This document shows positions 50,212-57,415 of a stretch of 64,000 nt of DNA, piece by piece (position 1 is the stretch's first letter; the number at the start of each line of letters is the position of its first letter). Source of the stretch: an uncultured Bacteriovoracaceae bacterium. Lineage in GTDB: Bacteria; Bdellovibrionota; Bacteriovoracia; Bacteriovoracales; Bacteriovoracaceae. The DNA lies in contig CAXGUD010000019.1 in the NCBI GenBank assembly GCA_964012805.1, positions 15,798-79,797 of the forward strand. The letters run 5' to 3'. A program made the translations under genes and the position numbers. The notes beneath the pieces were generated by a model. It had not been told where the DNA came from. It searched no databases and worked only from the letters and a program-made list of their open reading frames with translations.

Positions 50212-50613
50212 TTACTTTCCAGCTTTTTCACTGATTTTTTCTACGTTCTGCTCCTCAATATAAAGATCAGAAAAAAGTGTCTCGTTTGCCCATGCGTTAT
50301 AAGCATCTTCATGATGATACATGGTAATAGTTTCCCATGGGCAGTCTTGCGAGCAATTTTGACAACCAATGCATCGTGAAAGGTCTATTTCAACAGTTTG
50401 TTGAAAAACTGGATTTTCTGGATTCGGTCCTGGAACAAGTTCAATAGAGTCAACAGGGCAGCCTGCAATGCAAACCTCGCATCCTGTACAACCACTTTGA
50501 TGGACCACAGCTAAAAGCTTTGGCGGTTTTTTTCCCTTTCTCACTGGTTTTAGCCTTGCTGTGTGGAAAGGGTTTTCTACTAATACTGGAGAGTCATCCG
50601 ACATATTTTTCAC
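50212..50613 (-). CDS. 2x[4Fe-4S] ferredoxin-like protein with N- and C-terminal extensions
   Basis: CTGCEVCIAGCP and CIGCQNCSQDCP. Confidence 0.92.
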   Translation of the reverse strand: MKNMSDDSPVLVENPFHTARLKPVRKGKKPPKLLAVVHQSGCTGCEVCIAGCPVDSIELVPGPNPENPVFQQTVEIDLSRCIGCQNCSQDCPWETITMYHHEDAYNAWANETLFSDLYIEEQNVEKISEKAGK

Positions 50614-50769
50614 CTAGATATAAGTATTTTTTGTTAAACTATATCAATAATATCTTATTTCATTATCGTAACAAAGTGAATTTGCTTCATTAGATTTATA
50701 AGCTATATTGCTTTTTGTGTAAATTCCTAAAAAAATTAAGAAATTAAATAAAATTTATAGAGATGCTTT

Positions 50770-53700
50770 ATGAAAAAATTACGATTTGTGACTGCTGCGA
50801 GCCTTTTTGATGGGCATGATGTTTCCATCAATATCATGAGACGTTTACTTCAATCTAAAGGCGTGGAAGTCATTCACTTGGGGCATAACAGGTCCGCAGG
50901 AGATGTAGTGAATGCTTGTCTTCAGGAAGATGCTCATGCAATTGCATTGAGTTCATACCAGGGAGGCCATAATGAGTATTTTACCTACGTAAGAGAGCTA
51001 CTAAATCAGGCCGGTGCTAACAAAGTAAAGATTTTTGGTGGTGGAGGTGGTGTTATTACTCCATCTGAAATAAAGGCTTTGCACAACAAGGGTATTACTC
51101 GGATATATTCTCCAGAAGATGGGATGAAGCTAGGTTTGCCTGGAATCATTGATGACATGATAACAAGAGCGACTTATTCAACTTTAGAAGATATAAATTT
51201 TGAAAAAATGTCGGCAAAAAAGAGCTTATCTAATTTAGATATTTCTAAGGTCATAACTCACATTGAAGACTTGGGAGAAATTCCTCTTCAATTTAACGGG
51301 GGAGAAGATACTCCTGTATTAGGTATAACTGGAACGGGGGGAGCAGGAAAAAGTTCTTTGGTTGATGAAATACTTTTAAGATTTCATTTATTTTATCCAA
51401 ATTTAAAGGTAGCGCTAGTTTCAGTCGATCCCACGAGAAAGAAAACGAAAGGAGCTCTTTTAGGTGATAGAATAAGGTTAGGCAGTGCGAGTTACCCAAA
51501 TTTTTATATAAGGTCTCTTGCAACAAGGAACTCAAATACTGAATTGAGTCCACAAATTGAAAAAGTAGTCTCTTTTTTAAGGTCTCAAAACTTTGATTTA
51601 ATTTTGGTAGAAACCTCTGGGATTGGTCAAGCCTCTGATGAAATTACAAAGGTAGCAAACAAGTGTGCTTATGTTATGACACCAGAGTATGGTGCTCAAA
51701 CTCAACTTGAAAAAATAGAAATGATCGATGCTGCAGACTTTGTTGTTGTTAACAAGTTTGAAAAACCTAGATCTGAAGATGCTTTAAGAGATGTTTGTAA
51801 ACAATATAGGAGAAACCATTTACTTTTTGAAGGACACGAAGGTTCACCTAAAAATGAAGACTTACCAATTTTTGGGACTATGGCTTCTCAATTTAATGAC
51901 TCTGGTGTTAATGCCCTATTTAAAGAAATTTTAAATGAGTTTAATTTTGATACAGAGAAGGTTTCCTCTCTTTTTACAAGTAAAGTGCCTGAGGTTAAAT
52001 CCAAAATTATTGGCCCAGATAGATCCCTATATCTAAGAGAAATTGCTTTAACTGTAAAAAACTATAATAAAAAACATGAAGATATAGCTAAGGCTATTGG
52101 AGAGCTTCAAGCATTAGAAAAATCACTAGAAATACTAGGGGATAGTCCTGAATTAGAAAAAGCACTGAAAAGCAAAAGACGAGAGATACCTCCTGAAGCT
52201 TTGAAGGAAATAGAATCCTTTGATGAGGCAGCTAAAAGGATTGATGATGGCGAGTTTTCTTACTCTGTAAGAGGAAAATCTATTGAAGTTAAAACAAAAT
52301 ATCAGTCAATAGCTGGTTTAAGTTTACCGAAAGTGGCTTTTCCAAGGTTTTCTTCAATGGAGGATAAGTATCTTTTTATAAAGAATCAAAACTTACCAGG
52401 CTCTTTCCCTTATGCTTCAGGGATTTTCCCTTTTAAGAGAAGTGATGAGGATCCAAAAAGAATGTTTGCAGGAGAGGGTGGACCTAGTCGTACAAATGAA
52501 AGGTTTCATTACCTTTCAAAAAACGATAAAGCCAAGCGCTTATCCACTGCTTTTGACTCTGTAACTCTCTATGGAGAGGACCCTGATAAAAGACCAGATA
52601 TTTTTGGAAAAATTGGTGAAGCGGGTGTAAGTATAGCGACCCTAGATGATATGGAAGATTTATTTAGGGGATTTAATTTATCTGACCCTTACACTTCTGT
52701 TTCTATGACAATTAATGGTCCGGCGCCAATAATATTAGCAATGTTTATGAATACTGCTATTAAGCAAAAACTATCCGGGCCTGACCTTGAAAATGTTGTG
52801 AAGAAAGTCGAAGTCATGAGAAGCATTAGAGGAACTGTTCAAGCAGATATTTTAAAAGAAGATCAAGCTCAAAACACATGTATTTTTTCTTTGGAGTTTG
52901 CCTTAAAACTAATGGGGGATGTTCAAGAGTACTTTTGTAATAATTTAATAAAAAACTATTATACTGTTTCTATTAGTGGATATCATATAGCGGAGGCTGG
53001 AGCAAACCCAATAACACAGATGGCATTTACTCTTTCAAATGGTTTTACTTTCATTGAGTATTATCTCAATAGAGGTTTGAAAATAGATGATTTTTGTAAA
53101 AACTTATCCTTCTTTTTCAGTAATGGGTTGGATCCTGAGTATACTGTTATGGGTAGGGTGGCCAGAAAGATTTGGGCAGTTGTTTTAAAAGAAAAGTATG
53201 GAGCAGATGTAAAGTCTCAAATGTTTAAATATCATGTTCAAACTTCAGGGCGGTCTCTCCATGCCCAGGAAATTGACTTTAATGATATCAGAACGACACT
53301 CCAGGCTTTCCTGGCCTTAAGTGATAACTGTAATTCTCTTCATACAAATGCTTATGATGAGGCCATAACAACTCCTACGGAGGAGAGTGTGAGAAGGGCA
53401 ATGGCCATACAAATGATTATTAATAGAGAGTTTGGTTTAAATAAGACAGACAATCCTCTTCAGGGCGCATACCTTGTTGATGAACTTGCCGAGTTAGTAG
53501 AAGATGCAGTCCTAAGTGAATTTGAAAGAATTTCTGACAAGGGAGGTGTTCTAGGAGCGATGGAAAGTATGTACCAAAGAGGTAAAATACAGGAGGAGTC
53601 CCTACACTATGAAACATTAAAAGATAATGGGTCATTACCAATAATTGGTGTAAACACTTATATTTCTGAAAATATTGAAGAACAGCTGAATACAGAAATT

Positions 53701-53931
53701 GAATTATCTCGATGCACTGATGAGGAAAAGATCAAACAGATTGAGAGGCTTAAAGCTTTCCAGGATAGAAATAAATCAACGTCAAAGCAAGCTTTAGCTG
53801 ACTTAAGAGCGGTGGCCTTAAGAGGTGACAATATTTTTGAAGAGTTATTAAATACGACAAAGTTTTGTAGCCTTGGACAAATTTCTGAAGTTCTTTATGA
53901 AGTCGGGGGACGTTATAGAAGGAATATGTAA
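50770..53931 (+). CDS. icmF: Fused isobutyryl-CoA mutase / G-protein chaperone
   Basis: B12-binding SLFDGHD, GITGTGGAGKSS, ETSGIGQ, RMFAGEG (Phe specificity position), GTVQADILKE, HTNAYDEA. Confidence 0.96.
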   Translation: MKKLRFVTAASLFDGHDVSINIMRRLLQSKGVEVIHLGHNRSAGDVVNACLQEDAHAIALSSYQGGHNEYFTYVRELLNQAGANKVKIFGGGGGVITPSEIKALHNKGITRIYSPEDGMKLGLPGIIDDMITRATYSTLEDINFEKMSAKKSLSNLDISKVITHIEDLGEIPLQFNGGEDTPVLGITGTGGAGKSSLVDEILLRFHLFYPNLKVALVSVDPTRKKTKGALLGDRIRLGSASYPNFYIRSLATRNSNTELSPQIEKVVSFLRSQNFDLILVETSGIGQASDEITKVANKCAYVMTPEYGAQTQLEKIEMIDAADFVVVNKFEKPRSEDALRDVCKQYRRNHLLFEGHEGSPKNEDLPIFGTMASQFNDSGVNALFKEILNEFNFDTEKVSSLFTSKVPEVKSKIIGPDRSLYLREIALTVKNYNKKHEDIAKAIGELQALEKSLEILGDSPELEKALKSKRREIPPEALKEIESFDEAAKRIDDGEFSYSVRGKSIEVKTKYQSIAGLSLPKVAFPRFSSMEDKYLFIKNQNLPGSFPYASGIFPFKRSDEDPKRMFAGEGGPSRTNERFHYLSKNDKAKRLSTAFDSVTLYGEDPDKRPDIFGKIGEAGVSIATLDDMEDLFRGFNLSDPYTSVSMTINGPAPIILAMFMNTAIKQKLSGPDLENVVKKVEVMRSIRGTVQADILKEDQAQNTCIFSLEFALKLMGDVQEYFCNNLIKNYYTVSISGYHIAEAGANPITQMAFTLSNGFTFIEYYLNRGLKIDDFCKNLSFFFSNGLDPEYTVMGRVARKIWAVVLKEKYGADVKSQMFKYHVQTSGRSLHAQEIDFNDIRTTLQAFLALSDNCNSLHTNAYDEAITTPTEESVRRAMAIQMIINREFGLNKTDNPLQGAYLVDELAELVEDAVLSEFERISDKGGVLGAMESMYQRGKIQEESLHYETLKDNGSLPIIGVNTYISENIEEQLNTEIELSRCTDEEKIKQIERLKAFQDRNKSTSKQALADLRAVALRGDNIFEELLNTTKFCSLGQISEVLYEVGGRYRRNM

Positions 53932-54513
53932 ATGACAAAAAAATCTTCAATTTATACGAAGTCTGGAGACAAAGGCAAAACAAGCCTTGTTGGTGGAAAA
54001 AGAGTAAGTAAATCAGATATATCACTGGCATTGTATGGAGAGGTCGATGAACTTAACTCTTGGATAGGTGTTATTTTATCTGAAATGGAAGATAAGGATT
54101 ATGTTAAAAATCAAACTTTATTACTTAAGAACATACAGTTGTCTTTATTTAGTCTAGGGTCAAACTTTGCTTGTGAGCCTGAAAAAAGAAGCACATTTAA
54201 GCTTCCTAAGCTAGTCGAGGAAGACGTAGTAAAAATTGAGCATGAGATTAACGAAATGGATAAAGAATTAAGCGAGTTGAAAAACTTTATTTTGCCCGGT
54301 GGCTCTAAGCTTTCATCATTTTTACATATTTCGAGAACTGTATGCAGAAGAGTTGAAAGAACCCTTATCGCATATAGTGAAAAAAGTGGGGGCCTTTTAC
54401 CAGACTTTTCGAATGAGTTTATAAACCGACTTTCAGATTACTTTTTTGTTTTTTCTAGGTGGATAAATTTTAGAGAAGGAAAGGAAGAGGAGTTATGGAA
54501 ACCATCATTATAA
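53932..54513 (+). CDS. PduO-type ATP:cob(I)alamin adenosyltransferase
   Basis: IYTKSGDKGKTSL, YGEVDELNS, FILPGG, RTVCRRVER, NRLSDYFF. Confidence 0.96.
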   Translation: MTKKSSIYTKSGDKGKTSLVGGKRVSKSDISLALYGEVDELNSWIGVILSEMEDKDYVKNQTLLLKNIQLSLFSLGSNFACEPEKRSTFKLPKLVEEDVVKIEHEINEMDKELSELKNFILPGGSKLSSFLHISRTVCRRVERTLIAYSEKSGGLLPDFSNEFINRLSDYFFVFSRWINFREGKEEELWKPSL

Positions 54514-54552
54514 TATATTGAAATTACTCTCTTTTTTGGGGCGTTGAATAAA

Positions 54553-54561
54553 TGTTATAAT
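54553..54561 (+). promoter_or_regulatory. Extended -10 promoter element upstream of iscA-ygfZ
   Basis: Perfect TGnTATAAT (TGTTATAAT); AT-rich background lowers certainty. Confidence 0.45.
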
Positions 54562-54632
54562 ATGGTATGTATTGTTTAGCTTAGATAAAACAAACCAGTG
54601 TTTGGAGCACATGAATTGTAATAGGTGATTAA

Positions 54633-54977
54633 ATGGAAAACTCTGAAAGCTTAATTGAATTAACTGAGAAGGCAATTGATCATATTGGACAAATTTTAAA
54701 ACAAGAGAACCAGCCAAAAAATGTTGGAATACGTTTTGGTGTAATTGGCGGTGGTTGTTCTGGGTTATCATACAAAATTGAATTTAGTGAAGAAAAAGAG
54801 AATGATAATATTCTAACTTTTGGTGACGTAAAAGTACTTATTGACCCAAAGTCTTCTATATATCTCAAAGGAATAACCATTGACTTTAGCGATGGTCTTA
54901 ATGGAAAGGGTTTTGTTTTCAAAAATCCAAATGCTACAAATACGTGTGGCTGTGGAGAATCTTTTTCAATCTCTTAG
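54633..54977 (+). CDS. iscA: A-type Fe-S carrier (IscA/ErpA/HesB family)
   Basis: GGGCSGLSY, GFVFKNPNA, CGCGESF. Confidence 0.95.
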   Translation: MENSESLIELTEKAIDHIGQILKQENQPKNVGIRFGVIGGGCSGLSYKIEFSEEKENDNILTFGDVKVLIDPKSSIYLKGITIDFSDGLNGKGFVFKNPNATNTCGCGESFSIS

Positions 54978-55029
54978 TTATTTAAACCTTTAACTCTCAT
55001 TATTTAAAAATTTTCTAAGGTCAAAAATT

Positions 55030-56637
55030 ATGGATCTGTATGAAGCACGTTATAGAGGAGGAATATTAGCCTTTAATAATTGGAGGTTTTTAAAAATCTC
55101 TGGTTCTGATTGCGATACGTATATTCAAAATCACGTTACAAATGACATTTCTTCTTGTGAGGTTAATTCTGCTCAATTAAATTCTCGTTTAGACCGTGGT
55201 GGGAAAGTTCAAAGTTACTTTTATGTTGGAAAAAAAGAAGGTTATTATCTTCTTATAGTGCCTGAGGTTATGGCCGAAACTACTATATCAGAATTAGAAA
55301 AGTTTATCATAATGGAAGATGTTAGTATTTCAGCTTTAGAAACTTCTCAAGTTTATTTTTCTATTTCTTCTGACTTTTTAAACTTATCAGTTGAAGATAA
55401 AAAGGAGGATAATAAATTTTTGTTTCTTAATTACCTTGGTGAAGAAGGGTTTTTGTTTTGGGGAGAACGTTATACGAAGACTTTTTTTAGGTCTAAAAAG
55501 CTTGTTCCTAAAAGCATTGAAAATCAAATGAGGGTTTTAAGTGGTTGGTCTGGGTTAGAGAAGGAGCAAGTTTGTGGTAAAATAATTAATGAGAATATTT
55601 TAAATGAGTTAGCCATATCTTATTCTAAAGGCTGTTTTTTAGGTCAAGAAACTGTTTCAAAAATTCAAAATAATAGAGGAGCCTCTTATTACCCTGTTAT
55701 AATTAGAGCCGACAAAGGGAAATTAAGCGGTGATATAAAGTCTTATCAAAATCAGAGCTTTAAAGTTTCGAATAGAAAAGCCGGTACTTTTATTTCTAAT
55801 ACGACTTTGGAAAATGATGTTTTATTATTAGTAAGCCTTTATCGTGAATTTCGAATTGAAGGTCGGCATATTAAAATTTTATTTGACGATGGTTTCAGCT
55901 TGGAAGGTAAGGTTTCGTTTTTACCTTTCTTTAAGGATAAATCTCTTAAAGAAAAAGCAGACAAGGCATATTATAAAGGACTTCATTTTTTTCAGAATGG
56001 AGATGATGAAAGTGCTTTAGAAAACCTTAAAGTTTGTATTAACTTATTTTCTTCTCATGCAGATGCACTTGAGTCAATTGGAGTTATCTTAGGTCGCCAG
56101 GGACACTACAAACAGGCAATTGATTATATGGATAGGCTACTTGAGATTGATAAAGATTCTGTTATGGCTCATACAAATAAATCCCTTTACTTCATGAAAA
56201 TGGGAAAAATAGAGGAGGCTGAAGAAGAAAAGAGTCAGGCTGCTGTAAAGTCTTTTGCTTTTTATGGAAGGGAAGCCAAGAAGAAAAAAGAGAAAGAAGA
56301 GCTCGAAAAACAAGTGTCAGAAAGCCTGAAGAAAAAAGAGGAGATGTTTTTACAGGTTTTGGCGCTCGATGAGGATGATGTTTTGGCCAATTTTGGGTTA
56401 GGTGAGACTTATTTAAAGAAAAACGAACTACAAAAAGCATTAATGCATTTGCAAAAGGTCTTAAACCTTAATTCAAACCATTCAATGGCTTACCTAGTTT
56501 TAGGAAAAGTTTATGAAGGACTCGGAAGGTTGAAGGAGGCTGGAGAAGTTTACACGCGAGGTGTAGATGTTGCCTCGAAAAAGGGAGAAATGAAGCCAGC
56601 GAATGAAATGCAGGCCCGCCTTTCCAAGATCCTTTAG
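55030..56637 (+). CDS. ygfZ: YgfZ folate-binding protein fused to C-terminal TPR modules
   Basis: ISGSD...QNHVTND, KGCFLGQETV signature, then about 230 aa of TPR repeats. Confidence 0.9.
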   Translation: MDLYEARYRGGILAFNNWRFLKISGSDCDTYIQNHVTNDISSCEVNSAQLNSRLDRGGKVQSYFYVGKKEGYYLLIVPEVMAETTISELEKFIIMEDVSISALETSQVYFSISSDFLNLSVEDKKEDNKFLFLNYLGEEGFLFWGERYTKTFFRSKKLVPKSIENQMRVLSGWSGLEKEQVCGKIINENILNELAISYSKGCFLGQETVSKIQNNRGASYYPVIIRADKGKLSGDIKSYQNQSFKVSNRKAGTFISNTTLENDVLLLVSLYREFRIEGRHIKILFDDGFSLEGKVSFLPFFKDKSLKEKADKAYYKGLHFFQNGDDESALENLKVCINLFSSHADALESIGVILGRQGHYKQAIDYMDRLLEIDKDSVMAHTNKSLYFMKMGKIEEAEEEKSQAAVKSFAFYGREAKKKKEKEELEKQVSESLKKKEEMFLQVLALDEDDVLANFGLGETYLKKNELQKALMHLQKVLNLNSNHSMAYLVLGKVYEGLGRLKEAGEVYTRGVDVASKKGEMKPANEMQARLSKIL

Positions 56638-56680: not shown

Positions 56681-56755
56681 TGGCTGGGGTGAGGGGATTC
56701 GAACCCCTGACCAATTGATTAACAGTCAACTGCGCTACCGCTGCGCCACACCCCA
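56681..56755 (-). tRNA. tRNA-Asn(GTT)
   Basis: Reverse complement TGGGGTGTGGCGCAGCGGTAGCGCAGTTGACTGTTAATCAATTGGTCAGGGGTTCGAATCCCCTCACCCCAGCCA; loop CT-GTT-AA. Confidence 0.96.
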
Positions 56756-56956: not shown

Positions 56957-57415
56957 GTGAAGCCATCAGAAAAAATTATAAGAAGTCTTTTAAGAATAAT
57001 TACTCCTGGTGAAATTTCAGAGTTAACAAAAATTGCGAGTTTAAGACCGAGAGAAGCTTTAACAGATATAATGTTGAGGGATTATCAAAGAGGCAGAGAG
57101 AGTATAGATAAAGACTCTTCGTCCACGGCTACTTTGGACGAAGATCTTGAAGAGACTCCTTCAGTGCAATCAGGAGATTTGGAATCGAGGCTTGTTTTAA
57201 AAGGTGGCGAGGAGCTATCAAGAGGAAGCCTCTTTATTCTTTTTCAAAAAGAAAAGTTGAGATCATCTGTTTCAAAAATTAAAGAAAAAGAAGTTTTTGA
57301 TTCCTATAAGAAGAACTCTTCTGTTGACTTAAATCAAGAAAAGCAAAATAGAAAAAGAGATGACAGAAATCTATCATCCCATGTCGGTATACTAATTAAT
57401 AAAAAGCAGTTTTAG
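56957..57415 (+). CDS. Hypothetical protein
   Basis: 152-aa GTG-start ORF; stop overlaps the convergent ALDH stop. Confidence 0.7.
   Translation: MKPSEKIIRSLLRIITPGEISELTKIASLRPREALTDIMLRDYQRGRESIDKDSSSTATLDEDLEETPSVQSGDLESRLVLKGGEELSRGSLFILFQKEKLRSSVSKIKEKEVFDSYKKNSSVDLNQEKQNRKRDDRNLSSHVGILINKKQF

Follow-up and report, generated by a model that had tools for sequence, protein, structure and literature searches.

In mitochondria, the late steps of iron-sulfur (Fe-S) cluster assembly involve Grx5, Isa1-Isa2, Iba57, and Bol3. In its accessible portion, PMC9551070 describes transfer from Grx5 to the Isa proteins and then a reductive fusion to [4Fe-4S] that requires IBA57 and its signature cysteine; it regards IBA57's role as ill defined, and it gives the signature of COG0354 as KGC(Y/F)xGQE(L), with a surface cysteine. 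MiaB and RimO depend on YgfZ, whose precise role is called uncharacterised (PMC10002905, available excerpt). SufT is described as a probable carrier, and CIA2 contains a DUF59 domain (PMC8593673, available excerpt). Here we describe a protein in which YgfZ is fused to two tetratricopeptide repeat (TPR) modules, which we call A and B. It is encoded in a stretch of 64,000 nucleotides ("the window") of contig CAXGUD010000019.1, from the genome of an uncultured Bacteriovoracaceae bacterium (GCA_964012805.1). L, G, and C numbers below are our labels for loci, genomes, and contigs.

We propose that iscA and the adjacent YgfZ-TPR gene work as a unit in the late stage of [4Fe-4S] maturation and that the nearly cysteine-free TPR pair is a putative docking arm for a client or a carrier protein. 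Judging from sequences, we put the probability of this reading at roughly 0.6. We regard the locus as a variant form of the IscA-YgfZ module already known from late maturation, with a probable new accessory family. In a literature search that covered mostly openly accessible papers and their main texts, neither a fusion of YgfZ to TPRs, nor a pairing of SufT with a TPR protein, nor a TPR-YggX fusion turned up.

The window protein resembles YgfZ from E. coli (1nrk, 1vly; COG0354; TIGR03317) in its fold, in its signature cysteine motif, and in being present as a single copy per genome. The genome also encodes three MiaB/RimO-like enzymes, and YgfZ is reported to have clients of this class (PMC10002905, same excerpt). 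Unlike the E. coli protein, the window protein has about 235 additional residues at its C terminus, its gene is tightly adjacent to that of an A-type carrier, and its score against TIGR03317 is below the cut-off.

The fusion protein and its carrier

The fusion gene (P0001; 55030..56637, + strand) encodes 535 amino acids. Residues 1-300 (55030..55929, +) are a YgfZ/Iba57 domain of the COG0354 type: they match PRK09559 (E = 3e-15), and a phmmer search with these residues against solved sequences returned E. coli YgfZ (1nrk/1vly) alone. The protein scores 40.9 bits against TIGR03317 (curated cut-off 49). The cut-off is exceeded in 2 of 13 family genomes, and fused orthologues from other phyla (L153 and L086) score 69 bits. 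The signature KGCFLGQE (residues 200-207; 55627..55650, +), with Cys202 intact, occurs nowhere else in the six-frame open reading frames of the genome. The sequence continues to KGCFLGQET at residues 200-208, with T at the last position where the consensus has L. The K, G, C, G, Q, and E of the signature are present in all 107 aligned fused proteins, which were selected by this same motif.

An AlphaFold model of the protein (mean predicted local distance difference test, or pLDDT, of 92.6; predicted template modelling score, or pTM, of 0.83) comprises a GcvT/YgfZ fold at residues 1-300, helical hairpins at 306-390, a single helix of 53 residues at 394-446, and further hairpins at 451-534. Foldseek placed 3ttg, 1vly, and 1nrk at the top of the matches to this model and Iba57 (7z3h) at rank 12; on the model and these matches, the YgfZ half is predicted to have the GcvT-like three-domain fold. 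(Tetrahydrofolate binding is reported for YgfZ from E. coli and denied for Iba57.) Module A spans approximately residues 306-412 (55945..56265, +). It is followed by a charged linker (56266..56325, +), which in the model is part of the continuous helix 394-446, and by module B at approximately residues 433-535 (56326..56634, +), which carries a G-D/E-x-x-P-x-x-x-M cap. An earlier note on this DNA had described five open reading frames here, the YgfZ signature in the 535-residue frame, and two distinct TPR blocks with a charged helix between them. All of this was confirmed, and the block ends that it quoted lie at residues 378-401 and 511-531. The fusion is not an assembly artefact, as at least 120 homologues of 505-547 residues span 96-100% of the query.

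Just upstream, iscA (54633..54977, +) encodes an A-type Fe-S carrier: it scores 117.2 bits against TIGR00049 (cut-off 58.8), and Cys42, Cys105, and Cys107 are invariant across 61 aligned proteins. It reaches none of the equivalog cut-offs for IscA, ErpA, and SufA. It is the only A-type carrier with all three cysteines that we found in the genome. A second HesB-like protein (L492:8211-8669(-), in G000:C50) lacks the C-terminal CGCG cysteines; the gene just downstream of it presumably encodes an acyl-CoA dehydrogenase. Besides one canonical A-type carrier, one YgfZ, and the three MiaB/RimO-like enzymes, the genome encodes SufB, GrxD, and BolA, and searches of it for IscU and for a DUF59 domain gave no match.

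Modules A and B belong to distinct families. Two length-limited homologue searches turned up A-like and B-like proteins that stand alone and are about 105-115 residues long. The C-terminal caps set family members apart from generic TPR proteins: among 150 generic proteins (matches listed for the A profile in 50%-identity representatives, all of them long), the cap profiles score at most 15.4 bits (A) and 7.9 bits (B), while 16 A+B proteins score 43-62 bits (A) and 25-51 bits (B). One A-only protein (L262, 14.6 bits) and two B-only proteins (L462 and L482) are within the generic range. B-like proteins have been solved by structural genomics: the matches of 2kat and 3ma5/2kcl each cover almost the entire B profile in a single stretch (72.7 and 53.9 bits). 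Unlike the window's module B, these proteins are stand-alone, and they are named just "uncharacterized" or "TPR domain protein." Look-alikes in the ESM Atlas, which also have no functional name, come from Verrucomicrobiota, Myxococcota, Acidobacteriota, and Binatota for module A and from Nitrospirota, Planctomycetota, Acidobacteriota, Pseudomonadota, Myxococcota, and Verrucomicrobiota for module B.

The composition of the modules bears on what they might bind. Cysteine makes up 0.4% of residues in module A and 0.8% in module B, with one column in each that is at least 20% cysteine; methionine is about three times as frequent as in generic TPRs; and certain Glu, Asn, Ser, and Asp positions do not vary. 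In module A, which is rich in methionine and has no conserved cysteine at the positions listed, E348, N383, S385, A397, and E398 are invariant in 102 fused proteins. TPR grooves bind peptides, and the near-lack of cysteine together with the high methionine content and the invariant polar residues is more in keeping with a groove that binds a peptide than with a scaffold for clusters. A role of the modules as Fe-S scaffolds was ruled out by the near-absence of cysteine. In A+B proteins from Planctomycetota, the linker between A and B is longer and is rich in proline and alanine.

Distribution and origin of the fusion

The earlier note's expectation that relatives retain the fusion was borne out, in the same family and in other phyla. 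Full-length matches are present in 21 of 24 same-family genomes; the other three have completeness of 66%, 87%, and 99%. With the A profile, fusion-length frames were matched in 26 of 26. We extracted the region from 20 of the 21 relatives with a full-length match, and iscA is upstream of the fusion in all 20. Across 120 aligned homologues, the TPR modules are more conserved (mean column conservation 0.69 and 0.70) than the YgfZ half (0.61).

For other phyla, we scanned one genome per species with the A alignment as the query and typed the best 80 of 234 relatives by six-frame profile mapping. (Because a single stand-alone A protein served as the reference for ranking the 234, the sample is biased.) Of the 80 loci, 58 are YgfZ-A-B fusions and 15 are A+B genes that lack YgfZ; the remaining 7 frames have A only, and a contig end truncates one of them. 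The fusions are from non-photosynthetic Cyanobacteriota (Vampirovibrionales, Obscuribacterales, and Sericytochromatia), Hydrogenedentota, and Nitrospinota, which rules out a fusion confined to Bacteriovoracaceae; the fusion also occurs in Planctomycetota. A few fusion loci have discordant taxon labels, and their proteins cluster with the named groups. In samples of related genomes, fusion-length A matches occur in 11 of 61 genomes around G170 (by inference Cyanobacteriota), B matches in 34 of 61 around G171, and five fusions in 81 genomes around G173 (Planctomycetota).

The gene upstream of the fusion in the 58 loci is iscA in 43, grxD in 4, and a MiaB gene (over the cut-off) in 2; the other 9 have no match to our profiles, and three of these have no upstream DNA. 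Genes for DUF1858 (13 loci), GrxD (8), a Rieske ferredoxin (8), and BolA (7) are also found around the fusion. Thus, the families of the mitochondrial late pathway recur around the fusion. Unlike mitochondria, the window's host uses SUF, with no IscU found, and no TPR component is mentioned for mitochondria in the accessible portion of PMC9551070.

Several of these loci have further features. In 13 of them (including L104, L127, L134, L136, L144, L149, L157, and L159), a DUF1858 protein (TIGR03980) with a CxxC motif is encoded directly upstream of iscA-ygfZ-TPR, and 8 have a divergent Rieske ferredoxin. In Hydrogenedentota, the DUF1858 protein is thereby a second candidate for an accessory factor in Fe-S metabolism. 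At L265:3242-4401(+) in G412, the fusion is preceded by a BrxA/BrxB bacilliredoxin, an IscA with a 130-residue N-terminal extension, and a HEAT-repeat protein. The fusion at L133:3814-6714(+) has an in-frame insert of about 400 residues that contains repeats together with a transposase domain of the IS200-like (Y1) type.

We built trees from hand-picked subsets of the collected loci. In a tree of the A+B region (48 sequences), all 32 fused sequences lie on one side of a branch with support of 99/98 under midpoint rooting. A quick search with 76 YgfZ sequences grouped the 33 fused ones with the stand-alone YgfZ of locus L257 (support 77). With the fused sequences held together, the tree was 37 log-likelihood units better than this free quick search (p = 0.90 in the approximately unbiased, or AU, test), and grouping the fused YgfZ with the YgfZ of genomes that encode A+B separately ("split genomes") was not rejected (AU test, p = 0.151). 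The best reading of these trees is a single fusion event. At L257, YgfZ is near the fused clade while A+B is outside it; this pattern fits, by inference, an operon that may have preceded the fusion.

Three residues, R56, Y198, and R275, are nearly confined to fused YgfZ (for instance, R275 is present in 99 of 107 fused proteins and in 1 of 84 non-fused ones). They could be where TPR-A is seated, or they could simply mark the clade.

Modules A and B apart from YgfZ

In Omnitrophota and Planctomycetota, A+B genes without YgfZ lie directly after a DUF59/SufT gene in 15 of 15 cross-phylum loci, or in 16 of 17 loci if we count L257 and L259 from the G173 sample. L257 (L257:254-5420(+), in G411:C20) is a mixed ISC/SUF accessory operon: it encodes HscA (over the cut-off), a 2Fe-2S ferredoxin, a stand-alone YgfZ, a DUF59 protein, A+B, and a protein with DUF1858-like and rhodanese domains. 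A separate YgfZ is encoded in 8 of the 10 genomes with sufT-AB, and the two misses are assemblies of 0.8 and 1.4 Mb. In the 81-genome sample, YgfZ is found in 10 of 10 non-fused A carriers versus 27 of 66 genomes without A; for this count, 59 candidates per genome were scored, G408 was dropped as a generic TPR array, and L262 is borderline.

Module B is also fused to the N terminus of the Fe(2+)-trafficking protein YggX (PF04362, over the cut-off) in G349, G388, and G414, which are three of the four YggX genomes of the 81-genome sample and probably represent one lineage. In these proteins (L460:1159-1797, L463:1162-1794, and L481:1162-1791, all on the - strand), the source annotation names the YggX part only. 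Their B caps score 16.9-21.3 bits, versus at most 7.9 for the 150 generic TPR proteins, so they belong to family B.

One alternative to a docking arm is that the TPR pair serves YgfZ itself, by folding, stabilising, oligomerising, or gating the domain, and recruits no other protein. The confidence between domains in the model is high (the pTM given above), fused YgfZ has its own characteristic residues, and YgfZ accompanies every non-fused A carrier of the 81-genome sample, all of which would be expected. Nevertheless, we consider this alternative unlikely: A+B adjoins sufT and is usually far from ygfZ, module B is fused to YggX, and the characteristic residues are missing from the YgfZ of split genomes.

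Several observations weigh against the docking arm that we propose. All of the support for it is guilt by association. If the fusion arose once, then there are about three independent links to Fe-S metabolism (the YgfZ fusion, the adjacency to sufT, and the YggX fusion) and not dozens, and in all of these counts the genomes include non-independent kin. The residues specific to the fusion are missing from YgfZ where the genome is split (R275 in 0 of 9). Many YgfZ proteins have no TPRs: plain YgfZ without the arm is found in 52 of 68 genomes from other families of the window's own phylum, and a search for module B in other families of that phylum found it in 0 of 98 genomes. No DUF59 gene (PF01883) was found in five near-complete genomes of the window's family, its own genome included, although DUF59 is present in five of five fusion genomes from other phyla. 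SufT therefore cannot be an obligatory ligand of the TPR arm, and that candidate was ruled out. At L259 (L259:3837-5715(-)), the sole A+B locus without sufT, a divergent A+B gene overlaps the start of folD. Finally, the 15 distinct A-only loci have sufT upstream in 1, HemW in 5 (one lineage), and no Fe-S profile in 9, and no Fe-S profile adjoins a B-only gene in any of the best 80 among 344 metagenome loci of the Nitrospira type (one lineage, many of them short) or in any of 4 loci from the Planctomycetota sample of G173. The Nitrospira-type B genes instead neighbour a deacetylase-like protein, a rhodanese, and an oligopeptidase, with BFD/bacterioferritin genes further off.

The earlier note had viewed the fusion as a Rosetta stone that ties both TPR families to YgfZ and IscA, and it spoke of stand-alone A and B genes near isc clusters. 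The latter is not supported, as a carrier gene is beside A in 1 of 15 loci and an Fe-S profile is beside B in 0 of 84. The former holds for A+B, which follows sufT, and for B-YggX in three genomes; A and B are distinct conserved families that also occur apart from YgfZ. It does not extend to the single genes, and likewise, when the two blocks were searched for separately, Fe-S neighbourhoods were found for A+B and rarely for lone A or lone B.

These single genes, the one origin of the fusion, and the many YgfZ proteins without TPRs would also fit modules with a general role, in protein quality control or in the response to oxidative stress, that are merely co-regulated with Fe-S genes; the fusion would then be a frozen accident. 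We view this as improbable: three Fe-S partners (YgfZ, SufT, and YggX) recur by fusion or by tight adjacency, and within the fusion protein, conservation is higher in the TPR half than in the YgfZ half.

If iscA and the YgfZ-TPR gene do form a late maturation unit, then by analogy to mitochondria, a [2Fe-2S] cluster would reach IscA via GrxD and would be fused to [4Fe-4S] using the signature cysteine of the YgfZ/Iba57 domain, so that IscA and the YgfZ domain would carry out the late step in this host. TPR-A might sit on the C-terminal barrel of YgfZ. The grooves of A and B would hold a peptide from an apo-client or from a carrier, and the arm would thereby bring the partner protein to YgfZ and IscA. 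MiaB/RimO-type radical SAM enzymes would be the prime candidates for apo-clients. The fusion, whose single origin is supported by the trees, plausibly arose from a ygfZ-sufT-AB operon such as that at L257.

A broader version of this idea is that TPR-A and TPR-B are Fe-S targeting adaptors in many bacterial phyla, which recognise apo-clients and plug into YgfZ-IscA, SufT, and YggX, as a counterpart of the step in the eukaryotic cytosol that combines DUF59 with a solenoid. The eukaryotic CIA2-containing targeting complex includes the HEAT-type protein MMS19. The gene pairs resemble this complex in that DUF59 directly precedes a helical-repeat protein in 16 of 17 cases (CIA2 has DUF59, according to the excerpt of PMC8593673). 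In contrast to the complex, the repeat protein is a TPR protein and not of the HEAT type, the window's family lacks the DUF59 partner, and the comparison is between genes alone. We offer this broader version tentatively, as one that is somewhat more likely to be wrong than right.

Neighbouring genes and what the fusion could reveal

Upstream of iscA in the window are a PduO-type cobalamin adenosyltransferase (ATR; 53932..54513, +; TIGR00636, 180.6 bits versus a cut-off of 108.45) and its partner icmF, which encodes a fused isobutyryl-CoA mutase/GTPase (50770..53931, +; NF045497, 1593.7 bits versus a cut-off of 1500). A divergent 2x[4Fe-4S] ferredoxin (50212..50613, -), assigned by a family scan and by two CxxCxxCxxxCP motifs, precedes icmF. 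We judge all three genes to be neighbours and not parts of the maturation unit.

ATR needs a reductant, and the earlier note suggested that the whole locus forms a cofactor-maintenance system. In that case, IscA and YgfZ-TPR would mature the ferredoxin, which would reduce cobalamin for ATR and IcmF. Within the family, the linkage is real: atr is upstream in 17 of the 20 relatives, icmF in 16, and the ferredoxin in 15, of which 12 have it divergent from icmF. Its sequence is well conserved, at 70-96% identity across the family (58% for one fragment of 76 residues). However, unrelated genes in the same stretches are about equally syntenic (a response regulator in 15, a kinase in 14, astA in 14, and lspA in 13). 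The ferredoxin persists in three relatives without icmF-atr at the locus (L033, L034, and L039), and icmF persists in three without the ferredoxin (L036, L040, and L048). Of the 17 relatives that have atr, 13 have 0.6-2.6 kb between it and iscA, occupied by other genes (in most cases an FHA-domain gene on the opposite strand), so the window, where the two are directly joined, shows the less common arrangement. Outside the family, the linkage fails: neither the ferredoxin nor ATR was matched in the 80 cross-phylum loci, IcmF was over the cut-off in 0 of 5 fusion genomes from other phyla, and these five genomes gave generic ferredoxin matches only. Taken together, the synteny controls, the lack of IcmF, and the generic ferredoxin matches make a wider cofactor-maintenance system very unlikely. 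The three genes probably make up a unit of their own that family synteny keeps close by, and within the family the ferredoxin could serve ATR.

We also noticed other features of these stretches. The FHA-domain gene (L035:8551-9150(-)) has counterparts between atr and iscA in about ten relatives and is missing from that position in the window's lineage. The ferredoxin is more conserved in the family than IscA or ATR are, with near-invariant cysteine motifs, and our search for a close solved relative found none. Downstream of the fusion gene, the window has a tRNA-Asn (56681-56755, -) and an open reading frame of 152 residues (56957-57415, +) that has no family match and is syntenic in 11 of 20 relatives. 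A scan for promoters and terminators gave 17 and 3 sites, versus 22.2 and 4.6 in shuffled sequences.

How does YgfZ/Iba57 act, and what guides late Fe-S carriers to their clients? The fusion touches on both of these open questions. It naturally ties YgfZ to a conserved and deletable module that putatively binds protein, and so it offers a direct bait for the partner, as do the split forms beside SufT and the YggX fusion. Identifying that partner would give a first function to two common families of small TPR proteins, which now bear generic or misleading names such as TadD and PilF.

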